A stretch of DNA of 7,322 nt from the IMG/VR virus record IMGVR_UViG_2579778968_000003; one strand, 5' to 3'. This DNA is from a virus. Taxonomy: Duplodnaviria; Heunggongvirae; Uroviricota; Caudoviricetes. Made by a program: the position numbers and the translations under genes. Below the pieces are notes generated by a model. It did not search any database and was not told the origin of the DNA. It saw nothing but the letters and a program-made list of their open reading frames with translations. This document shows positions 189 through 7,272 of this stretch, one piece after another. Position 1 is the stretch's first letter. Each line of letters opens with the position of its first letter.

Positions 189-1484
189 TTAATTTTTCAT
201 TGCTTCGTTATGGGGCATGGTTGGGGCAAACTCGCTTAACTGTGTATTTAACAAAGCTACCTGTGCATTATTGTTTTCAGACATCCATTTTCCGTATACC
301 TGAAATACCATTTGCGCATCTGCATGGCCCATCTGGTTTGCTATAAATGCCGGGTTAGCACCAGCTGTCAGCGACCAGCAGGCATAAGTATGTCTCGACT
401 GATATGATTTTCGATGGCGGAGTCCGGCACGTTTTATCGCTGCGTCCCACATCTGCCTTATTGAGTCAACGGTAAAATGGTCACCATAATTTTTTACTCT
501 CGCTGACACTTCAGGTTGAAAAACAAAGGTGCATTTTTGTTTTTCTGTTCTGCCATACTCTCTGAGGTGAACATCAATGATATGCTCTTTGCTCAGTCTC
601 GTTAATGTCATCTGACTCCGGAGAGCGTCGATTGCTGGCTTAATAAGATGAATGACCCGATTGGTTCCCGCCTGTGTTTTTGGTACCGTGAAACGGTCTT
701 TTGCTAAATTTCTCCTGATCATCATTGTTCCATTTTTCAGATCTATGTCCTCCCATCCAAGTGCACACAGCTCACCAGGGCGAACGCCAGTATAAACAGA
801 AACACACCATAAATTTTTTGCTTGCTGATTTCTGCACGCATCGATAAGACGGATAAATTCCTCCCGCGAAAGAGGATCCGGAATGGTTCTTGATTCCTTT
901 AATGGCGAGATCCCCTTAAACGGATTATCTGGCAGGTAACCGTTATCAACACCAAACTGGAACACGGCGTTAAGATTTGTCATGTAATTATTTACAGTTA
1001 CAGCCGATCTCCCTGGTTGTGTAACAATATAGTTACTTTTGGGGATCTGGTATCCAGTCAGTAGCTCTTTACGAACCTCCAGTAATTTTTCTTTATTAAT
1101 CGATGAGGCAAGATTTTTTTCACCGATTATGCTCAGGATATTTTTGATGACGGCACGGTATGTGTTGAGTGATGTTTTGGCGACTTCAGTTTCTTTCAGT
1201 GCCAGAAATTTTTCAGCCAGTTCTTTTATGGTTAAATCTTGTCGGGCCTCACCAAATTTTTCCAGATTGCGTGAGGAGGGAAACTGTTTTGCATAGTCGA
1301 AAACACCAGTTTTTATTGCGTAACAAACAGAGGAGCGTAGTTCACCTGCAACGCGCCTGTTTTTTGCTGTGTCAGGAACCCCCAGATTTTCCCTGACTCT
1401 TACGCCTTTATAAACAAACCAGATACGTAATTTCCCTCCATGGTTTTCCACGCCTGTCGGATATTTCATTTCAACTTCTCTCAT
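189..1484 (-). CDS. int: Phage integrase, tyrosine site-specific recombinase (lambdoid Int family)
   Basis: 431-codon ORF. N-terminal region ...MKYPTGVENHGGKLRIWF... and C-terminal region ...RHRKSYQSRHTYACW...GHADAQMVFQVYGKW fit the conserved Arg/His/Tyr catalytic region of tyrosine recombinases. It is the last gene of the leftward operon, directly after the excisionase-like ORF. Start is ambiguous: ATG at 1484 has no Shine-Dalgarno, while ATG at 1469 (giving MKYPTG...) is preceded by GAGAGAAG. Confidence 0.9.
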   Translation of the reverse strand: MREVEMKYPTGVENHGGKLRIWFVYKGVRVRENLGVPDTAKNRRVAGELRSSVCYAIKTGVFDYAKQFPSSRNLEKFGEARQDLTIKELAEKFLALKETEVAKTSLNTYRAVIKNILSIIGEKNLASSINKEKLLEVRKELLTGYQIPKSNYIVTQPGRSAVTVNNYMTNLNAVFQFGVDNGYLPDNPFKGISPLKESRTIPDPLSREEFIRLIDACRNQQAKNLWCVSVYTGVRPGELCALGWEDIDLKNGTMMIRRNLAKDRFTVPKTQAGTNRVIHLIKPAIDALRSQMTLTRLSKEHIIDVHLREYGRTEKQKCTFVFQPEVSARVKNYGDHFTVDSIRQMWDAAIKRAGLRHRKSYQSRHTYACWSLTAGANPAFIANQMGHADAQMVFQVYGKWMSENNNAQVALLNTQLSEFAPTMPHNEAMKN

Positions 1485-1503: not shown

Positions 1504-1755
1504 TCAAGTAAGATGACGTCTTGGTCTCGCTGATGCCTGGCGCTCAATCCAGCGATCAATTTCTTCCAGGTTGTAAAAGCATGGACTGTTATCCCATGGC
1601 ATACTGTCATGAGCGACATGCTTATATTCCCTTCCTTCCATAAACGATTTTTCCCGGGCCTTTTTTAACGTACCTTTTTTTATTCCTTTCAGCGCAATTA
1701 ACTGCTCTTCGGATACCCATTTGCCGGGAGAGACAATCATGATTACTTCGCTCAT
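1504..1755 (-). CDS. xis: Excisionase-like small DNA-binding protein (Xis)
   Basis: 83-aa basic ORF immediately upstream of int on the same strand, with xis stop at 1504 and int start at 1469/1484. The ...KGTLKKAREKSFMEGREYKH... segment resembles excisionase-like proteins of enterobacterial prophages as I recall them; not verified by search. Confidence 0.6.
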   Translation of the reverse strand: MSEVIMIVSPGKWVSEEQLIALKGIKKGTLKKAREKSFMEGREYKHVAHDSMPWDNSPCFYNLEEIDRWIERQASARPRRHLT

Positions 1756-1827: not shown

Positions 1828-4299
1828 TTAAGAATCAGCCTGACTCGGGATCAGTTTTTGCCAGATAACTGAAACGTATTTTGCCTGGTAACGGGCGTCA
1901 TCAAGTGCATTATGGCGCTCACCTTCGAATGGAATAGCCGTTCTGGCATCGAAGTCTATGGCTTTCCCCAGCTCAACGATTGTGCGTACATCGCGATCGT
2001 TGTAGTAACGCCACGGGCAGGGGATCCCCTGCCGTTCGTATGAACGGCGCAAAATCGTGTTGTCGAAGTTGGCTCCATTTCCCCAAACCTGAACAAAAAA
2101 TTCACTGGAGTTTTCGTCGATAAATTCCCGCAATTGTAACAGTGCATCATCTAACGGGATTTCATCGGTCATAATGGCAGATTGCGCTTCGCGTGATTGC
2201 TTAAGCCACCATTTAATGGTGTCCCGATCAATGACTCCGCCAGCAGTTTCCAGATCGATAGTCTTACTAAATTCCGGTCCCATATCTCCGGTTTGCGGAT
2301 CGAAAAATATTGCACCTATTGAGATGATCGGGGCATCAGGATTTTTTCCCATGGTTTCAAGGTCGATCATTAGATGGTCACACGTCCTGCTGGTGGATGT
2401 GATTTCGTGATGACCGTTCACCTTAATTGAGTGATCTGCCGTCTCGCCAGTTTCATTATCGCTATTGTGATGCTGATTGCCGCCAGTGTTCTCCTTGTGT
2501 GGATGTTCAGCGCCTTCCATTTCCTCCGGATCATCTTCCTGAACTTCAACCTGATACTCTTCATCGAATGTTTCTTGGTATGTTGCGTCGCCCATCACCG
2601 CGCCACAATCAGGGCAGTTGCCGCCGCCGGTCTGACCGCAGGCGGTGCAGACTTTTTCCACTTCCTGTTGCGCCACTGGTTCAGGCTGTTTCGTTTCTGG
2701 CTCGTTTTGTAACGCATTTGTGCTGTTTTGTTCCGCTTTTTGGTAGTTCCGTTCCGATTCATGCTGGTTCTGGTTCACAGAATCGCGGGTCTGGATCCCC
2801 TTAACCCATTTCGGATCATTCGGGTCACTAATCCCTTCAACAAATTCACCACGTGATGCAGCAAGCAACTTATCGGCGTCAGGCTGGCTGATATTGGCTG
2901 CCTGCATAATTTTGTTTACTTCGTCAGCGGTAACTTTTATCGGCTCTGGTTGTTCTGAATCTTCAGCGGTATCTACATTTTGCGGTAAGCCCGTGTATGT
3001 GCCATTTTTTCGGGCAAAATATTCTTCTTTTGTGATTTCAGTGGCGCCAGCAGCCAGTGCCTTATCCAGACCAGAAAGTTTGTTTGCGCGACCGTATTTT
3101 TCTCCGTCCTTATCTGCGAAGAGGAAATAGAACGGCCCCTCACGCTCTACAGATGGTTCAGCTTCCGGCGCGGTTTCATTTTTTGGGATATCAGATACCT
3201 CAGTTTCCACTGCATCAGTTTGTGTTTCTGATGACTGGAGAACATCAACAGTGCCCAGGTCTGTTTCTTCATTCTCAAACACGCCCTTTGTCGTCAGGTA
3301 TTCGCAGATATATTTGTTCAGTGCTATGGGATCTTTGTGAATGTCGATCGGACGCTCACGGACAAGGCCAAAAATAGTCTGGCGGTCGTAGCGAAGGGCA
3401 TCAGGCTGTTTGCGCATTGATGCCGAGATACGCTTCCAGTCTTCGCGGTCGTTGTCGATAACTTCTTTTTTTGCCCAGCGATGGATGCTGCCGTCAATGT
3501 TTCCGGCATCCACATCACCAGGCCAGAGAGCGTAGGCCAGTTCGTCATCCAGTGTTTTCCATGTCTGCTTGTATTCGCGATGAATGGCAGCAATGACCGG
3601 GCTGATTTTTCCTGTTGAATTTTCAGTGTACTGTTGATTGGCTCTGGCGCGGGCGAGATCAACAACAGACGTGTATTTTCCGGTTTCCTTGCGTTCACCT
3701 TCGCGACGTTTTTTCCAGATGCGCATCTCTGCCTGAATTTCGGGCCATTTAGCACCAGGAATACATTTATGCTTAACCCACCCAATGGCGTGCAACTTAA
3801 GCTCCGGATACATGGCGTTAACTTCTGGCATTTTCATCAACGCTTCAACGATATGTCCGTCGAATGTTGCCATGTCTTCCTGCAACAATTCCTGTGCGCT
3901 AATAACCATATCAACGGTGATGTTTTCACATGTGTCGAACTTAACCATGACAGCGTTCTGTACTTCAGGGGCCAGCTTGTCAAAAGTGACGTTCATCGGA
4001 TCGGATTCAGTCTCAACCGGGACAAAAGAAGCAGACTCCTCATCCCAGCGGTTTTCCTGCATATATTCAGCATCCCATGAATCGAGGGCAGGGCGGGGTA
4101 TGCCAGGTTTATCCTCGCAGACAATAAATTTATAAGCGCAGTCCTGAGCAGCCGGATAATGTTCCAGGAACTGCCAGTGAAATTTTGCTCGAGCACGGCG
4201 TTCGTCGCCAGCTTCAATGGCTGTGGCTACAGCCACAGCGCCTTCTTCCCTTGTTGCCAGTTCGTCAGGAATAGCGGCGCAAATAAAGACTTTACTCAT
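1828..4299 (-). CDS. Large prophage protein with C-terminal DEDDh (DnaQ-like) 3'-5' exonuclease domain, in the recE/exo position; likely the intact counterpart of the K-12 Qin ydfE fragment
   Basis: 823-aa ORF with Shine-Dalgarno GAGG 8 nt before ATG at 4299. The C-terminal ~180 aa carry the three DEDDh exonuclease motifs: ...MIDLETMG..., ...WGNGANFDNTIL..., ...HNALDDARYQ.... A CxxC-x7-CxxC zinc ribbon (CTACGQTGGGNCPDCG) lies at about 2605-2649, and an acidic His-rich low-complexity linker separates it from the nuclease domain. Location between xis and ydfD/dicB matches the ydfE slot of Qin. Confidence 0.85.
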   Translation of the reverse strand: MSKVFICAAIPDELATREEGAVAVATAIEAGDERRARAKFHWQFLEHYPAAQDCAYKFIVCEDKPGIPRPALDSWDAEYMQENRWDEESASFVPVETESDPMNVTFDKLAPEVQNAVMVKFDTCENITVDMVISAQELLQEDMATFDGHIVEALMKMPEVNAMYPELKLHAIGWVKHKCIPGAKWPEIQAEMRIWKKRREGERKETGKYTSVVDLARARANQQYTENSTGKISPVIAAIHREYKQTWKTLDDELAYALWPGDVDAGNIDGSIHRWAKKEVIDNDREDWKRISASMRKQPDALRYDRQTIFGLVRERPIDIHKDPIALNKYICEYLTTKGVFENEETDLGTVDVLQSSETQTDAVETEVSDIPKNETAPEAEPSVEREGPFYFLFADKDGEKYGRANKLSGLDKALAAGATEITKEEYFARKNGTYTGLPQNVDTAEDSEQPEPIKVTADEVNKIMQAANISQPDADKLLAASRGEFVEGISDPNDPKWVKGIQTRDSVNQNQHESERNYQKAEQNSTNALQNEPETKQPEPVAQQEVEKVCTACGQTGGGNCPDCGAVMGDATYQETFDEEYQVEVQEDDPEEMEGAEHPHKENTGGNQHHNSDNETGETADHSIKVNGHHEITSTSRTCDHLMIDLETMGKNPDAPIISIGAIFFDPQTGDMGPEFSKTIDLETAGGVIDRDTIKWWLKQSREAQSAIMTDEIPLDDALLQLREFIDENSSEFFVQVWGNGANFDNTILRRSYERQGIPCPWRYYNDRDVRTIVELGKAIDFDARTAIPFEGERHNALDDARYQAKYVSVIWQKLIPSQADS

Positions 4300-4392: not shown

Positions 4393-4584
4393 TTAAAGAC
4401 CTGCCGGGATTTCGATATTATCCTGGTGAATAACTTTATCGACCGGGTAACAGTTACCGGGAATTTTCTGTTCGGTTGCTGCTGTCATACACTCCTGCAT
4501 TGTCCTGTGAACACTGACTGCAATATCAACTGGCTCTCCGGAAACAAGAAAAACTGTCAGAACAAGCGCAAATGCTGAATTCAT
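4393..4584 (-). CDS. ydfD: YdfD-like small protein with N-terminal hydrophobic (transmembrane or signal) segment
   Basis: 63 aa from ATG at 4584, with Shine-Dalgarno AGGA 8 nt upstream. Sequence MNSAFALVLTVFLVSGEP... has a hydrophobic N-terminus. The start overlaps the dicB stop as ATGA. Length and position match Qin YdfD (63 aa) as I recall it. The ORF track's longer 81-aa version starts further upstream without a Shine-Dalgarno. Confidence 0.6.
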   Translation of the reverse strand: MNSAFALVLTVFLVSGEPVDIAVSVHRTMQECMTAATEQKIPGNCYPVDKVIHQDNIEIPAGL

Positions 4585-4769
4585 TGTGCACATCCTTTTG
4601 GCATCAGACGTAAACGAGCCAGCATTGAAACAATGCATATTTTATTTAATAGCTCCCGTTCTTGTTTTCTCTTGTTAATGGCATCTTCAGTAAATACAGG
4701 GTTACTGATAGTGACACCAATTTCAAAACAACCTTCAGACGTATTAACGTTTGGTAATAACGTTTTCAT
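4581..4769 (-). CDS. dicB: DicB cell-division inhibitor (MinC-dependent FtsZ-ring inhibitor)
   Basis: 62 aa from ATG at 4769, with Shine-Dalgarno GAGGA 7 nt upstream. Translation MKTLLPNVNTSEGCFEIGVTISNPVFTEDAINKRKQERELLNKICIVSMLARLRLMPKGCAQ matches my recollection of E. coli DicB (62 aa). It lies about 175 nt downstream of DicF, as in Qin. The 97-aa version in the ORF track is an upstream extension. Confidence 0.8.
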   Translation of the reverse strand: MKTLLPNVNTSEGCFEIGVTISNPVFTEDAINKRKQERELLNKICIVSMLARLRLMPKGCAQ

Positions 4770-4939
4770 TATCGCGTCCTCAACAATGAATTTTGTGATG
4801 CAGTGCCTGGTGCCTCCAGGTGACGTTAACCAGTTAACAATTAACGCCGGATACAGAGAATCCACCCATAACACTGTTTTTGGTTTTAACTGTTCCGCGT
4901 GCGCTTAGCCGCATTCACCGCATCACAAAATTCACTTTA

Positions 4940-4996
4940 AAAACGGCGGCAGAGCAGTCACGGAGTAAAACTGATACCGCCAAACGTCACCAGAAA
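4940..4996 (-). ncRNA. dicF: DicF small regulatory RNA (Hfq-dependent; represses ftsZ and other targets); ends approximate
   Basis: Minus-strand sequence TTTCTGGTGACGTTTGGCGGTATCAGTTTTACTCCGTGACTGCTCTGCCGCCG followed by TTTTT matches the ~53-nt DicF sRNA as I recall it, including the 5' seed UUUCUGGUGACG. The 3' end has a GC-rich stem (GGCGG...CCGCC) followed by a U-run at 4943-4939, consistent with an intrinsic terminator. Confidence 0.8.
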
Positions 4997-5271
4997 ATTG
5001 ATAACAGAGGGCGTTGCAGCGGGGTTGTCACTTAAGCGTATGGTCAACCTGACAACTCGGTGTCCTCAACGGGGAAGGAATAACCCTGCCATACTTACCG
5101 CCGCGCCATTTCGCGGGTTGCCACAACCGGAAGCGCACGGTCGAATTAAATTTAACGACACCGTACAGTGAGACGAACTTCGCCGTGCGCTTTCGTGTTG
5201 TGTGCCTGCTTTTAACCACGTCAGGCGAGGTGGTATCCTTCTTATTCCGAATAACCAAGAAGGAAATCTAT

Positions 5272-5472
5272 ATGACTAAAGAAGAATTTGTCTCTTATAT
5301 TTTTGATAAAACGGTTGAAATGTATGCCGCTACTTACGGGTCCTGTAATCCTCTGAATAAACCAGAGGGGAAAGATGATTTCGACAAAATTTACCGCTTC
5401 TTGGAGGACCGCTATATCAAAAGGTTAGAGGACGCAGGGATCAAATCCCCAGTGAAGTCACCATTGTCCTGA
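5272..5472 (+). CDS. Hypothetical 66-aa protein encoded antisense to the dicB-operon leader (putative)
   Basis: ATG at 5272 is preceded by a strong Shine-Dalgarno AAGAAGGA with a 7-nt spacer. Product MTKEEFVSYIFDKTVEMYAATYGSCNPLNKPEGKDDFDKIYRFLEDRYIKRLEDAGIKSPVKSPLS is hydrophilic, charged and protein-like. A weak sigma70-like promoter candidate lies upstream: TTAACC (5212-5217), 16 nt, TGgTATCCT (5232-5239). The 3' end overlaps the convergent 121-aa ORF by 32 nt. No homolog recognised. Confidence 0.3.
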   Translation: MTKEEFVSYIFDKTVEMYAATYGSCNPLNKPEGKDDFDKIYRFLEDRYIKRLEDAGIKSPVKSPLS

Positions 5473-5806
5473 GAACTTGCAGGACGTCATGATCGTAACT
5501 TCCATCCAAACCGCGACAGCAAATTGCTTCTCGTATTACCGGAAGCAGTTCGCTGGAAATCTCGGTGCATATTTCACCTGATAATACGCCTGGCTCAAGT
5601 GAGAATATTGGTGAACTTACGGTCTTGGTCTCGACAGTTTCAGAGTCAGTGCCAACATTATAAAGCTCAACGAAAGCGGTCTTGATTTTCCGGGCCAGAT
5701 CTTTTGCTGGCTCGCTTGCAATATCTTTCCCGATTTCTCGCAGCACAGAATGCAATGTATGAGCTGCTGTTTTCTGTACATCAGACGGTAAATCTTTAAA
5801 TTCCAT
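5441..5806 (-). CDS. Hypothetical 121-aa protein in the ydfB/ydfC position of the dicB operon (possibly an unsplit YdfB-YdfC)
   Basis: ORF with ATG at 5806 (MEFKDLPSDVQK...) preceded by GAGG with a 6-nt spacer. An alternative ATG at 5818 overlaps the ydfA stop as TGATG. Position between ydfA and DicF matches ydfB (42 aa) plus ydfC (72 aa) of K-12 Qin, whose combined span is similar in my recollection. Confidence 0.6.
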   Translation of the reverse strand: MEFKDLPSDVQKTAAHTLHSVLREIGKDIASEPAKDLARKIKTAFVELYNVGTDSETVETKTVSSPIFSLEPGVLSGEICTEISSELLPVIREAICCRGLDGSYDHDVLQVLRTMVTSLGI

Positions 5807-5817
5807 CGTCAGCCTCA

Positions 5818-5970
5818 TCAGTCAGTGTTTCTGGCTAACCAGCAACGCGCGCCAGATTCGGTTTTAAACGTTTTGCTTTTGGTATATGTCATCGCGGTGA
5901 ACGTACCGTCCTGGTTGGGGAACACGCCACATACCAGAGATTCGCTGTTGCCAAGATCGATAGTATCCAT
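5818..5970 (-). CDS. ydfA: YdfA-like small protein, first gene of the dicB operon
   Basis: 50 aa from ATG at 5970, with GAGG 5 nt upstream. Translation MDTIDLGNSESLVCGVFPNQDGTFTAMTYTKSKTFKTESGARCWLARNTD matches my recollection of Qin YdfA (51 aa). It is the first ORF downstream of the operator-containing region that follows dicA. Confidence 0.7.
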   Translation of the reverse strand: MDTIDLGNSESLVCGVFPNQDGTFTAMTYTKSKTFKTESGARCWLARNTD

Positions 5971-6050
5971 GCTGACCTCATTTCCCCTTAACGCCGGGGT
6001 CGCGGAACTGTTTGCTGAGAACACCGTGCGGTGTCTTGATGGAAAGTAAT

Positions 6051-6106
6051 TTAGAATAACCTAACATGAGAGGCAAGTGTTTTTTGTTAGATTGATCTAA
6101 CAAAAA
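6051..6106. promoter_or_regulatory. dicB-operon promoter/operator region: near-perfect 26-bp palindrome plus a degenerate second site
   Basis: 6081-6106 is TTTTTGTTAGAT-TG-ATCTAACAAAAA with 12-bp arms. 6051-6064 is TTAG-aataac-CTAA. Both share the TTAG-N6-CTAA core with the sites in the dicA/dicC intergenic region. Located between the dicA 3' end and the ydfA start, where a repressor-controlled promoter for the dicB operon is expected. Confidence 0.6.
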
Positions 6107-6138
6107 GAGTGGGCGCAACTAATCACTTGAAAAGAATG

Positions 6139-6546
6139 TTATTTTATTGATTTATTTTTACGCGCTTTAAGCATTTCTTCGAAGAGTTTGTTGAAGTTTT
6201 CTACTCTTGCGCGCATTTCAGACAGCAAGGCTTCCTGCTCGGAAGATGGAAGAGCATCGAATAATTCGATCAATTCTTTGTGGTTGGGAGTTAGCTCTGT
6301 TTCCACATGAAGTTCTTGTGCAGGCACTGGTGCCTTGTCTTCGTCACCAAACATTAGCCATGTAGGTGAGCACTTCAGAGCATCCGCTAAAGCAAACAAT
6401 CGTTTTCCGACTGGCTGGGTTTCGTCTCTTTCCCATTGTGAAATTGTGACGTGAGCAACTCCAGCGAGGCGCGCAGCTTCTCGTTGTGTTAAGCGTAATT
6501 CTTTTCGTCGCGCCAGAACTCGCTGGCCTAGGGTTCTTGTATCCAT
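6139..6546 (-). CDS. dicA: DicA-like prophage repressor (XRE-family HTH; cI/C2 functional analog)
   Basis: 135 aa, the same length as K-12 DicA. N-terminal HTH ...LRLTQREAARLAGVAHVTISQWERDETQP...; the rest, ...KRLFALADALKCSPTWLMFGDEDK...EMRARVENFNKLFEEMLKARK, closely resembles DicA as I recall it. Divergent from a cro-like gene. Confidence 0.88.
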   Translation of the reverse strand: MDTRTLGQRVLARRKELRLTQREAARLAGVAHVTISQWERDETQPVGKRLFALADALKCSPTWLMFGDEDKAPVPAQELHVETELTPNHKELIELFDALPSSEQEALLSEMRARVENFNKLFEEMLKARKNKSIK

Positions 6547-6626
6547 AGTTAGGTAATTCTAATTTTTCTTGACTTAGGTATCCCGCGCACAATAATGTTA
6601 GAAAAGTCTAACAAGAGGGGGCTTTG
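6547..6626. promoter_or_regulatory. Divergent dicA/dicC promoter region with two operator-like palindromes
   Basis: A perfect palindrome TGTTAGA-AAAG-TCTAACA (6596-6613) overlaps a sigma70-like dicC promoter: TTGACT (6569-6574), 18 nt, TAATGT (6593-6598). A degenerate site GTTAGG-TAAT-TCTAA (6548-6562) overlaps a candidate dicA -10 element TAGAAT on the minus strand. dicA has essentially no Shine-Dalgarno and may be expressed from a short or leaderless transcript. Confidence 0.6.
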
Positions 6627-6854
6627 ATGCTTAAAGTTGACGCAATTACTTTTTTTGGCAGCAAAACAAAGCTTGCCAATGCCGCAGGAGTGAGACTGGC
6701 AAGTGTTGCTGCTTGGGGGATACTGGTTCCTGAAGGTCGCGCGATGCGTCTACAGGAGGCATCTGGCGGGGAGCTTCAGTATGATCCCAAAGTTTATGAC
6801 GAATATCGTAAGACGAAGCGGGCGGGGCGGTTGAACAATGAAAATCACTCCTGA
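6627..6854 (+). CDS. dicC: DicC-like Cro-type regulator (YdaS/DicC family)
   Basis: 76 aa from ATG at 6627, with Shine-Dalgarno AGAGGGGG 5 nt upstream. Translation ...FGSKTKLANAAGVRLASVAAW...PEGRAMRLQEASGGELQYDP... is a Cro/YdaS-type HTH. Divergent from dicA. Confidence 0.8.
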   Translation: MLKVDAITFFGSKTKLANAAGVRLASVAAWGILVPEGRAMRLQEASGGELQYDPKVYDEYRKTKRAGRLNNENHS

Positions 6855-7272
6855 ACAGGCTCGTGAGGCTCTGGATGCCTGGATATGTCGACCAGGAATG
6901 ACACAGGAGCAGGCGACGATATTAATCACTGAAGCATTCTGGGCTTTGAAAGAGCGCCCGAACATCGATGTTCAGCGTGTCACATATGAAGGTGGCGCGG
7001 TTGATCAGCGAGCGCTTAGCGTTAATCGAGTGAAGATATTCGAACGCTGGAAGGCTATCGACACCAGGGATAAGCGTGAAAAGTTCACAGCGCTAGTGCC
7101 TGCAATTATGGAGGCTATCCGGATTAGTGATTTCAGGTTGTATCGTGAGATCAGTGATGGAAAAAGTATTACGTACATGATCGCCGGGTTAAATAAAGAA
7201 TATGGCGATGTGGTGGAATCCGGACTGCTTTTTGCAGATCCTGCCGTTGTAGATCGTGAAAGGCTTTGTTGA
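6838..7272 (+). CDS. Hypothetical 144-aa protein in the cII / YdaT-like position downstream of the cro-like gene
   Basis: Complete ORF from ATG at 6838 to TGA at 7270-7272. Its start overlaps the dicC-like 3' end by 17 nt, suggesting translational coupling. No catalytic motif recognised. Position is analogous to ydaT in Rac or cII in lambda. Confidence 0.65.
   Translation: MKITPEQAREALDAWICRPGMTQEQATILITEAFWALKERPNIDVQRVTYEGGAVDQRALSVNRVKIFERWKAIDTRDKREKFTALVPAIMEAIRISDFRLYREISDGKSITYMIAGLNKEYGDVVESGLLFADPAVVDRERLC

Follow-up and report, generated by a model that had tools for sequence, protein, structure and literature searches.

The operators of the dicA–dicC–dicB immunity region in the Qin prophage of Escherichia coli K-12 were reportedly described by Bejar et al. 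in 1986 and 1988. In the work of Yun et al. (2012) the Qin operators are Oc, Om and Oa: DicA binds Oc in vivo, a single A-to-C change in CTAACA abolishes that binding, and the protein represses dicC and is needed for transcription of dicA, which it activates from Oc; the dicC +1 was mapped by 5′RACE, and DicA bound neither Oa nor Om when each was placed alone in a reporter (‘data not shown’) (PMC3441716). Transcription of dicA has been mapped to a start 3 nt ahead of its ATG (PMC4681348, supplement). At the promoter of the dicB operon (dicBp), DicA represses 22-fold; it lacks a RecA-cleavage domain and is inactivated by the antirepressor Rem, and the system acts as a bistable switch (PMC10448788). 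ChIP-seq peaks of DicC flank dicA and share the core-only motif TT(A/C/T)G...C(G/A/T)AA, and DicC represses dicA 48- to 84-fold (PMC11430063). The 2020 Reg-Seq survey lists the DicA site for dicB as one of low evidence and unknown location, and the stretch around dicA that it mutagenised yielded no site for RNA polymerase; the main text of a ChIP-seq compendium (PMC12059191) mentions neither DicA nor DicC.

The window analysed here, that is, the whole stretch of 7,322 nucleotides, is a lambdoid prophage of E. coli that resembles Qin. It carries int, xis, an exonuclease gene, ydfD, dicB, DicF, ydfA, dicA-like, dicC-like and ydaT-like genes in a Qin-type layout, with the dicA-like and dicC-like genes divergent and a ydfA–DicF–dicB operon downstream of dicA (Table 1). 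An identical stretch is found in the genome of strain 104, where the prophage appears complete and not cryptic, and the Pfam families found in the operon are DUF1391, DicB and DUF1482. The DicA-like protein is 57% identical to K-12 DicA, with HTH_3 as the only Pfam match over its 135 residues, and residues 1–71 resemble the N-terminal domain of P22 c2 (E = 1 × 10−18; PDB 1adr, 2r1j and 3jxb). No LexA-like C-terminal domain of the kind that undergoes RecA-stimulated self-cleavage was found in it, as Pfam returned HTH families only and the PDB match ends at residue 71. The DicC-like protein is 86% identical to K-12 DicC and matches the structure of P22 Cro (PDB 1rzs, E = 1 × 10−6).

Table 1. Operators, promoter elements and genes of the switch region. 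Positions are those of the window; mismatches are counted against the family consensus TGTTAG-N6-CTAACA.
Feature	Position	Strand	Remarks
Oc, perfect 18-bp operator TGTTAG-AAAAGT-CTAACA	6596–6613		Aligns with K-12 Oc TTGTTAGTTATGACTAACAA; 0 mismatches
Oa, degenerate operator	6549–6562 (18-bp frame 6547–6564)		Orthologue of K-12 GTTAGCTAATGCTAAA; 3 mismatches
OL-distal, perfect 18-bp operator TGTTAG-ATTGAT-CTAACA	6085–6102		T5/A5 flanks give 26 bp, 6081–6106; 0 mismatches
OL-proximal, degenerate operator	6051–6064 (frame 6049–6066)		Orthologue of K-12 TGTTAGTCATGGCTAATC; 2 mismatches
dicC promoter TTGACT, 16-bp spacer, AATAAT	6569–6596	+	Promoter scan, 10/12 matches; corresponds to the K-12 dicC promoter
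dicA −10 TAGAAT	6556–6561	−	Within Oa; at −12 to −7 by the mapped K-12 start site
dicBp −35 TTGCCT (predicted)	6071–6076	−	Between both OL sites; sequence reading
dicBp −10 TAAATT (predicted)	6048–6053	−	Overlaps right half of OL-proximal; sequence reading
dicA-like repressor gene	6139–6546	−	135 aa with an N-terminal HTH like that of P22 c2; lacks a peptidase domain
dicC-like Cro gene	6627–6854	+	75 aa; Pfam P22_Cro
Operon downstream of dicBp	4393–5970	−	ydfA to ydfD; annotated in the identical stretch of strain 104
ydfA	5818–5970	−	dicBp operon
Hypothetical gene	5441–5818	−	dicBp operon
DicF RNA	4944–4995	−	Rfam DicF, 72.5 bits
dicB	4581–4769	−	dicBp operon
ydfD	4393–4584	−	dicBp operon

The four sites of the initial annotation are confirmed: the core motif TTAG-N6-CTAA occurs at exactly four places in the window (6051–6064, 6087–6100, 6549–6562 and 6598–6611), against a mean of 0.06 and a maximum of 1 when the window is shuffled. 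The enrichment over the genome, which the annotation had proposed to check, holds too, with no match in 150 kb of the identical host genome, that of E. coli strain 104 (100 kb of chromosome and the adjoining 50 kb including the remainder of the prophage). The TTAG and CTAA frequencies predict 2.3 matches per Mb, which gives a Poisson probability of about 1 × 10−13 for at least four within 563 bp. The sites are real, and their number is far above chance expectation. Their centres are spaced by 49 bp on the dicA/dicC side and by 36 bp on the dicB-operon side, and the two clusters, 511 bp apart, enclose the dicA gene.

Only Oc and OL-distal match the 18-mer TGTTAGA-N4-TCTAACA. For the latter, the interval 6087–6100 given previously covers just the 14-bp core, whereas the palindrome itself stands and its extension to 26 bp has perfect 11-bp arms. 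The word ‘perfect’ applies to the arms, as the central 4 bp (TTGA in OL-distal, AAAG in Oc) are not self-complementary. Arms of 7 bp do not survive comparison either: position 7 (A/T) varies in relatives, which leaves a true arm of 6 bp.

Each of the four sites has a positional orthologue in K-12 Qin that aligns with it base for base, and the positions agree within 1–2 bp relative to the start and stop of dicA. Gene order and half-sites (TGTTAG/CTAACA) are the same, and the sites overlap the same promoter elements (dicC −10, dicA −10 and start site, dicBp spacer and −10). The earlier proposal that they are operators of a DicA/DicC immunity switch of the lambdoid type, at both the dicA/dicC and the dicB-operon promoters, is supported. 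The two alleles differ in the 6-bp spacers, in a DicA that is only 57% identical, in the distal dicBp site, which has lost a half-site core in K-12 (CATACA) and is a perfect palindrome here, and in the ‘Om’ palindrome ATGTTAACAAAAACAT, which is present in K-12 and absent from this allele. We considered a lone TTAG half-site at 6574–6577 as an Om-like third operator on the dicC side and rejected it; it has no partner at N6 and is fused to the dicC −35 as TTGACTTAG.

Oc starts at the final base of the dicC −10 and covers about −7 to +11 of that promoter; its predicted use in dicC repression agrees with its orthology to K-12 Oc, an in vivo binding site of DicA (PMC3441716). The dicA and dicC promoters overlap back to back, with start sites roughly 54 bp apart, that of dicC being predicted near 6603. 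The consensus promoter scan reported no dicA promoter, and we located it with the help of the start site mapped in K-12; by orthology, transcription would start at 6549. Oa overlies the −10 and the start site of this near-leaderless mRNA and ends 2 nt ahead of the dicA ATG. The hexamer falls inside the site, which accords with the placing of this weak site over the dicA −10 in the initial annotation.

The same scan did not report dicBp (8/12 matches), and its hexamers are our reading of the sequence; both are conserved across the alignment of homologues, and K-12 has TTGACC-17-TAATCT at this position. We placed the promoter with a check of the DicF numbering: counted from the implied start site, near 6041, the 3′ end of DicF falls at about +998 to +1003, in agreement with the published 190-nt DicF that starts at 813/814. 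On the minus strand OL-proximal reads TGTTAG-GTTATT-CTAAAT, fills the dicBp spacer and overlaps the −10 (−25 to −8), and OL-distal lies upstream of the −35 (−61 to −44). The geometry at dicBp is opposite to that implied by the initial annotation, with the weak site within the core promoter and the perfect site outside it. In K-12 and one further lineage (L099) the proximal site is superior to the distal one, which has lost a core, and a strong distal and a weak proximal site are therefore not a fixed arrangement in the family. A hairpin in the leader (6021–6034) folds no better than shuffled sequence.

Phylogenetic footprinting covered 29 unique homologous sequences for Oc and Oa and 50 for the OL sites. 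The TTAG/CTAA columns are invariant (8/8) at Oc, Oa and OL-proximal, whereas variation is seen in 70 to 85% of the remaining intergenic columns and in the spacer columns (6/6 at Oc, OL-distal and OL-proximal, 3/6 at Oa). Across 12 spacer variants the halves of Oc are invariant save for one last-base change. OL-distal has 18 spacer variants; its left half is TGTTAG in 49 sequences and CGTTAG in one, and its right half is CTAACA in 47 of the 50, having been lost in the K-12 group and L099.

The recognition helix HV(T/S)(I/V)SQWER of DicA is kept in K-12, Citrobacter, L096, L099 and L103, and relatives with this helix have exact sites upstream of the dicA ATG, at −65/−66 and −16, and past the dicA stop at +70 to +79, most of them also at +39 to +44. 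With other DicA helices come other half-sites at the same positions (CCTTAG...CTAAGG, TGTTGAG-N4-TTAACA, TTGAG-N4-CTCAA and TAAC-N4-GTTA). At Oc, OL-distal and OL-proximal the outer bases follow the DicA class and change from TG to CC or the like (OL-proximal has the left half CCTTAG in L007 and TCTTAG in PPompW L187), whereas Oa remains AATTAG. Between L010/L015 and L012/L019/mEp460, both the DicA helix and Oc differ, but the Cro helix SAVSQW and the sequence ATTAAGATATCTAAA at the Oa position are identical. This suggests that Oa tracks Cro and not DicA, an association seen in a handful of lineages. For sampling specificity classes, a protein search of a phage collection served better than a scan of viral contigs seeded with another class, which returned near-identical copies only (96–100%), with no added diversity.

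From these comparisons we consider it probable, at roughly 85%, that the four sites together form the operator set shared by the two repressors of a P22-type switch in a Qin-like lambdoid prophage. The DicA-like protein would bind TGTTAG-N6-CTAACA as a symmetric dimer, and the DicC-like Cro would recognise the common TTAG...CTAA core. In a lysogen-like state, DicA on Oc would block the dicC promoter at its −10/+1, and this block would presumably free or stimulate the weak, near-leaderless dicA promoter that overlaps it. DicA on OL-proximal and, in a role that we infer, on OL-distal would silence ydfA–DicF–dicB–ydfD. Upon inactivation of DicA, DicC would be made, bind Oa, shut off dicA and lock the switch. 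The weak sites would be weak because they share bases with the −10 hexamers TAGAAT (Oa) and TAAATT (OL-proximal). Activation by a contact between DicA at Oc and sigma, as made by lambda CI at OR2, is disfavoured; since Oc has its centre at −55.5 relative to the start of dicA transcription and not at about −42, relief of promoter competition seems the preferable explanation.

The alternatives concern mainly which protein uses Oa. A stricter form of this scheme, which we regard as tentative and rather less likely than not to hold in full, divides the labour completely, unlike lambda and P22: DicA would act on Oc and the two OL sites only, Oa would be a Cro-only (DicC) operator, and the ‘activation’ of dicA by its own product would amount to relief of occlusion by the strong dicC promoter. 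With such a division, the Oa sequence would evolve with the Cro helix and no contact between DicA and polymerase would occur at the dicA promoter. The Oc and OL clusters may also loop around the dicA gene.

Similarly doubtful is the model of the initial annotation, in which all four sites are DicA operators of graded affinity, DicA at high concentration represses itself through Oa in the manner of lambda CI at OR3, and dicC and the dicB operon are repressed by DicA through the perfect sites. Any occupant of Oa would repress dicA, given that the site covers its −10 and start site, and Oa retains a perfect core together with the near-consensus half CTAACT. Yet its outer bases ignore the DicA specificity class that the other three sites follow, and the 49 bp between the centres of Oa and Oc are not the 23–24 bp that separate adjacent lambda operators, where cooperativity is pairwise. 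In K-12, a high-copy DicA plasmid did cut dicA-promoter output from 73 to 36, which the authors attribute to insoluble protein, and the binding assay used isolated sites, which leaves room for cooperative or looped binding; against this, K-12 DicA bound neither Oa nor Om in vivo (PMC3441716). Autorepression through Oa is unsupported, because K-12 DicA activates dicA from Oc and fails to bind Oa alone. Since DicC binds the core motif to either side of dicA, a DicC-preferred, OR3-like role is more likely for Oa, although which protein uses it is inferred. Elsewhere in strain 104, the region upstream of cysJ, the second-strongest DicC ChIP region in K-12, holds no site with fewer than three mismatches.

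Conservation of Oa could alternatively be due only to the −10 hexamer and the leaderless start context, not to protein binding. Highly improbable is the broader claim that the two perfect palindromes are the only operators and that the degenerate copies are promoter elements that resemble the core by chance or common descent and bind no specific protein: both weak sites do overlap −10 hexamers, a −10-like hexamer occurs at the Oa position in every operator-specificity class, even those with quite different operators, and K-12 DicA does not bind Oa alone (PMC3441716), but every one of the 29 to 50 sequences keeps the exact TTAG-N6-CTAA geometry at both weak sites, conserved bases extend beyond the hexamers (the left TGTTAG of OL-proximal and CTAAC of Oa), the left half of OL-proximal changes in step with the DicA class, K-12 has its better dicBp site at the proximal position, and DicC binding by ChIP-seq flanks dicA with the core motif (PMC11430063).

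Read as a shared DicA/DicC operator set, the four sites are those of the already described switch in a variant allele, and finding them from the window was an essentially correct rediscovery that does not overturn the current understanding of this switch. What is new is their precise placement on the three promoters of this allele, including the location by sequence of the DicA sites at dicBp that the 2020 survey had left without a position, and the retention of one operator specificity by two DicA alleles of 57% identity, which should therefore be homo-immune and cross-regulate each other's prophages. In the DicA family, five or more operator specificities have evolved on a single scaffold of four fixed positions, and this diversity is a natural data set for the rules by which HTH proteins recognise DNA.

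The locus resembles P22 immC in the homology of its repressor N-terminal domain and Cro to c2 and Cro, in its 18-bp operators of two-fold symmetry with a variable centre, in the divergent repressor and cro genes and in a second operator cluster at the leftward early promoter. The half-sites differ, being TGTTAG in this allele and ATTTAAG in the P22 consensus, and so do positions 31, 32 and 34 of the recognition helix (AHVT here, SNVA in P22 c2). The repressor has 135 residues and lacks an S24 peptidase or RecA-cleavage domain, and each promoter has two recognisable sites (36 and 49 bp apart) in place of three closely spaced, cooperative ones. Derepression in K-12 goes through an antirepressor (PMC10448788).

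With lambda CI and Cro the system shares a bistable switch in which two proteins have opposite preferences on common operators, a (near-)leaderless repressor mRNA whose weak promoter needs repressor at a neighbouring site, and operator clusters on either side of the repressor gene, about 0.5 kb apart. The operator sequences are unrelated, and instead of the tripartite lambda array there are two full sites per side and, at 6574, the single TTAG half-site. The site to which the repressor binds as an activator has its centre near −55.5 and not at −42, and at the leftward promoter the site of highest symmetry is the promoter-distal one.

We found the TTAG-N6-CTAA core four times in the whole window, starting at 6051, 6087, 6549 and 6598, with no fifth match elsewhere, compared with a mean of 0.06 and a maximum of one in shuffled sequences. 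This agrees with the four operator-like sites with a common core, two perfect and two degenerate, proposed in the initial annotation. Their enrichment is borne out by the background, as 150 kb of sequence from the identical host genome contains zero matches compared to four in 563 bp; TTAG and CTAA are both uncommon tetramers in E. coli, which gives an expected density of 2.3 per Mb, and the Poisson probability of at least four core matches within 563 bp is roughly 1e-13. The perfect sites are 18-mers, TGTTAGA-N4-TCTAACA with an asymmetric central four bases, one on the dicC side (Oc) and one upstream of the dicB-operon promoter, dicBp (OL-distal). The latter extends to a 26-bp form (6081-6106) with perfect 11-bp arms; it had been reported at 6087-6100, a range that delimits only its 14-bp core, the 18-mer spanning 6085-6102.

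These four sites are the DicA/DicC operator set of Qin, the E. coli K-12 prophage with dicA-dicC-dicB, in a different allele. When both intergenic regions were aligned with Qin, every site had a K-12 counterpart: that of Oc is the published Oc sequence read from the opposite strand, that of Oa (the degenerate site at the dicA start) adjoins the dicA start and that of OL-distal lacks one half-site core. DicA binds K-12 Oc in vivo and no longer does so after one A-to-C substitution in CTAACA, the site overlaps the -10 of the dicC promoter, where the dicC +1 was mapped, and dicA transcription requires DicA (Yun et al., PMC3441716). DicA represses dicBp 22-fold, the bistable behaviour of the switch depends on DicC, and Rem is an antirepressor, in work that also restates operator sequences in both intergenic regions (Ragunathan et al., PMC10448788). 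The site for DicA at dicC was also recovered in a Reg-Seq survey, which rated the one for dicB as low-evidence, location unknown (PMC7567609).

The window belongs to a Qin-like lambdoid prophage, of which it is the immunity and early-left region; its DicA-like and DicC-like proteins are 57% and 86% identical to those of K-12. E. coli strain 104 (NZ_CP029164) matches the 1.1 kb around the operator sites at 100% identity, and parts of that stretch are matched in 3882 of 5426 complete E. coli genomes. In strain 104, the window-bearing prophage (3229597 to roughly 3273400, between rspB and ydfJ) encodes integrase, excisionase, full-length exonuclease, rem, a Q-like antiterminator, lysis genes, terminase, portal, capsid, tail and tail-fibre genes, and looks like a complete Qin-like lambdoid prophage, compared to the decayed Qin in K-12. 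TTGAACAATGAAAATCAC, which overlaps the ATG (6838) of the ydaT-like gene, resembles the YdaT-box TTGATT-N6-AATCAA (4/6 and 5/6 half-site matches); in Rac and CP-933P the ydaT start codon lies inside the spacer of this box, which is bound by the CII-like YdaT (PMC11879457).

Genes, promoter elements and operator sites in the window
Feature	Coordinates	Strand	Remarks
integrase	189-1484	-	
excisionase	1504-1755	-	
823-aa exonuclease	1828-4299	-	
ydfD	4393-4584	-	
dicB	4581-4769	-	
DicF RNA	4944-4995	-	Rfam 72.5 bits
hypothetical gene	5441-5818	-	
ydfA	5818-5970	-	
inverted repeat ACACCGTGCGGTGT	6021-6034		
dicBp -10 TAAATT	6048-6053	-	predicted
OL-proximal	6051-6064		degenerate; K-12 ATTAGCCATGACTAACAT
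dicBp -35 TTGCCT	6071-6076	-	predicted; 17-bp spacing to -10
OL-distal	6085-6102		perfect; K-12 TGTATGCTATAGCTAACA
dicA-like gene	6139-6546	-	
Oa	6549-6562		degenerate; K-12 GTTAGCTAATGCTAAA
dicA -10 TAGAAT	6556-6561	-	exactly -12 to -7; K-12 TAGCAT
dicC promoter	6569-6596		TTGACT, 16-bp spacer, AATAAT
Oc	6596-6613		perfect; K-12 TTGTTAGTTATGACTAACAA
dicC-like gene	6627-6854	+	
YdaT-box-like sequence TTGAACAATGAAAATCAC	6831-6848		
ydaT-like gene	6838-7272	+	

The first base of Oc is the last base of the dicC -10. The K-12 dicA start site, 3 nt 5' of the ATG (PMC4681348), transfers by alignment to 6549, which with the position of TAGAAT means that Oa covers +1 to -14 and, as first described, lies over the dicA -10. 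The K-12 equivalent of dicBp is TTGACC-17-TAATCT, both hexamers are kept among relatives, and the implied start, which places the K-12 DicF 3' end at roughly +998 to +1003, fits the published 190-nt DicF precursor starting at 813/814. Here the strong and weak sites had been misread: the weak OL-proximal lies inside the core promoter (-25 to -8), and the perfect OL-distal lies 5' of the -35 (-61 to -44), the reverse of what repression of the dicB operon through its strong site would imply. Both weak sites are degenerate because they share bases with -10 hexamers (TAGAAT and TAAATT), and Oa also with the transcription start. As -61 to -44 is where an UP element would lie, a repressor at OL-distal may compete with the polymerase alpha subunit. 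OL-distal is flanked by a T-tract (6081-6084) and an A-tract (6103-6106) that are conserved in relatives, even with different half-sites (for example, CTTTTGTTGAG...CACCAAAAAT in L010, a relative's locus). The inverted repeat ACACCGTGCGGTGT would fall at about +8 to +21 of the dicB-operon transcript predicted here; it recurs in phage mEp460 as well as in K-12 and the window group, and forms a 6-bp hairpin as RNA. The dicB-operon leader folds no better than shuffles (z = 0.36), and a 5' stabiliser or nut-like element are guesses at the role of the repeat. No terminator-like hairpin was found in 6102-6141, from the dicA stop (6139-6141) to dicBp, so transcription from dicA could possibly continue into the dicBp operator/promoter region.

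Genomes, phage records and viral contigs served as sources of DicA-family loci. Among the loci fetched, 90, from Escherichia, Citrobacter, Enterobacter, Rahnella, Symbiopectobacterium and metagenomic viral contigs, encode a full-length homologue with a recognition helix of the form HV(T/S)(I/V)SQWE(R/S). Representatives (window group, K-12 group, Citrobacter, L096, L099 and L103) carry exact TTAG-N6-CTAA at -65/-66 and -16 from the dicA ATG and at +70 to +79 past the stop, most with an additional exact core at +39 to +44. Across 29 distinct upstream and 50 distinct downstream sequences (divergent L007, L011 and L016 excluded), all eight core columns are invariant at Oc, Oa and OL-proximal, and core loss at OL-distal is confined to the K-12 group and L099. 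In the spacers, variation reaches all six columns at Oc, OL-distal and OL-proximal (12, 18 and 7 variants, respectively) and three of six at Oa (4 variants); 70 to 85% of the remaining intergenic columns also vary. Fetched after these 90, Stenotrophomonas phage vB_SmeS_BUCT709 (OM816835), recorded as infecting Stenotrophomonas, an unexpected host for this module, has the same DicA-like helix and enterobacterial TGTTAG-N6-CTAACA operators at the same positions.

In homologues with other helices, TTAG-N6-CTAA is absent from 3.4 kb, and different inverted repeats occupy the same four positions. Such covariation of helix and half-site would be expected of real operators, and the DicA family appears, from sequence comparison, to have split into five or more classes of operator specificity that keep a common four-position layout, a natural data set for a recognition code. 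Half-sites follow residues where helix 2 begins (TQR versus SQA) and in the recognition helix (L007, L010, L012, L014-L020, L187-L191).

Putative DicA-family specificity classes
DicA helix	Operator	Members
TQR + HV(T/S)(I/V)SQWE	TGTTAG-N6-CTAACA	window, K-12, Citrobacter
SQ(A/S) in place of TQR	CCTTAG-N6-CTAAGG	L007, PPompW, a Klebsiella phage
S(H/Y)A(T/S)ISLWES	TGTTGAG-N4-TTAACA	L010, L015
S(G/D)SSISLWES	TTGAG-N4-CTCAA	L012, L019, phage mEp460
SSVSVFKWEN	TAAC-N4-GTTA	L014, L017, phage phiES15

Over residues 1-71 the DicA-like protein, in which no peptidase domain was found, matches the N-terminal domain of P22 c2 (E = 1e-18), with the DNA complexes 2r1j and 3jxb among the structures matched. 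The match of the DicC-like protein is to P22 Cro (1rzs). These similarities point to a switch of the P22 type, in which a Cro and a dimeric HTH repressor would act through common 18-bp operators that have two-fold symmetry and a variable centre: DicA on Oc would block dicC, DicA on both OL sites would block the dicB operon, and DicC on Oa would shut off dicA. The reading as graded operators of the lambdoid type was right in general; DicA autorepression through Oa, also proposed, is unsupported by K-12 data, as neither Oa nor Om, two other sequence-predicted operators, bound DicA when tested alone (PMC3441716). This argues for assigning Oa to DicC, as does DicC ChIP-seq in K-12, where the strongest signal is at this locus, with sites inferred on both sides of dicA, the motif is the core only, TT(A/C/T)G...C(G/A/T)AA, and DicC induction lowers dicA 48- to 84-fold (PMC11430063). 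Moreover, the outer bases at Oc, OL-distal and OL-proximal follow the DicA class (TG in one; CC, TC or GC in the other), with Oa constant as AATTAG in both. Two classes with different DicA helices and Oc have a common Cro helix, SAVSQW, and the same sequence, ATTAAGATATCTAAA, at the Oa position, a hint that Oa may follow Cro rather than DicA, in a comparison of few lineages confounded by the -10 hexamer always at this position; for these two reasons we give the role split a probability of about 0.5 to 0.6. As for stimulation of dicA by DicA at Oc, the simplest explanation would be relief of promoter occlusion, since Oc is centred at -55.5 from the dicA start, whereas lambda CI sits at about -42, and, with the dicA and dicC start sites roughly 54 bp apart, a polymerase bound at the strong dicC promoter would overlie the dicA -10.

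The operator set itself is already known from Qin, and its novelty is low; the increments are the exact promoter placement for the window allele and the conserved four-position scaffold, together with the putative specificity classes and the hint on Oa. Compared with P22 immC, the window system has a half-site of its own, lacks a RecA-cleavable domain and, rather than a tight three-operator array, has sites 36 and 49 bp apart in two clusters separated by 511 bp, whereas both proteins, repressor and Cro, are related to those of P22 by descent.
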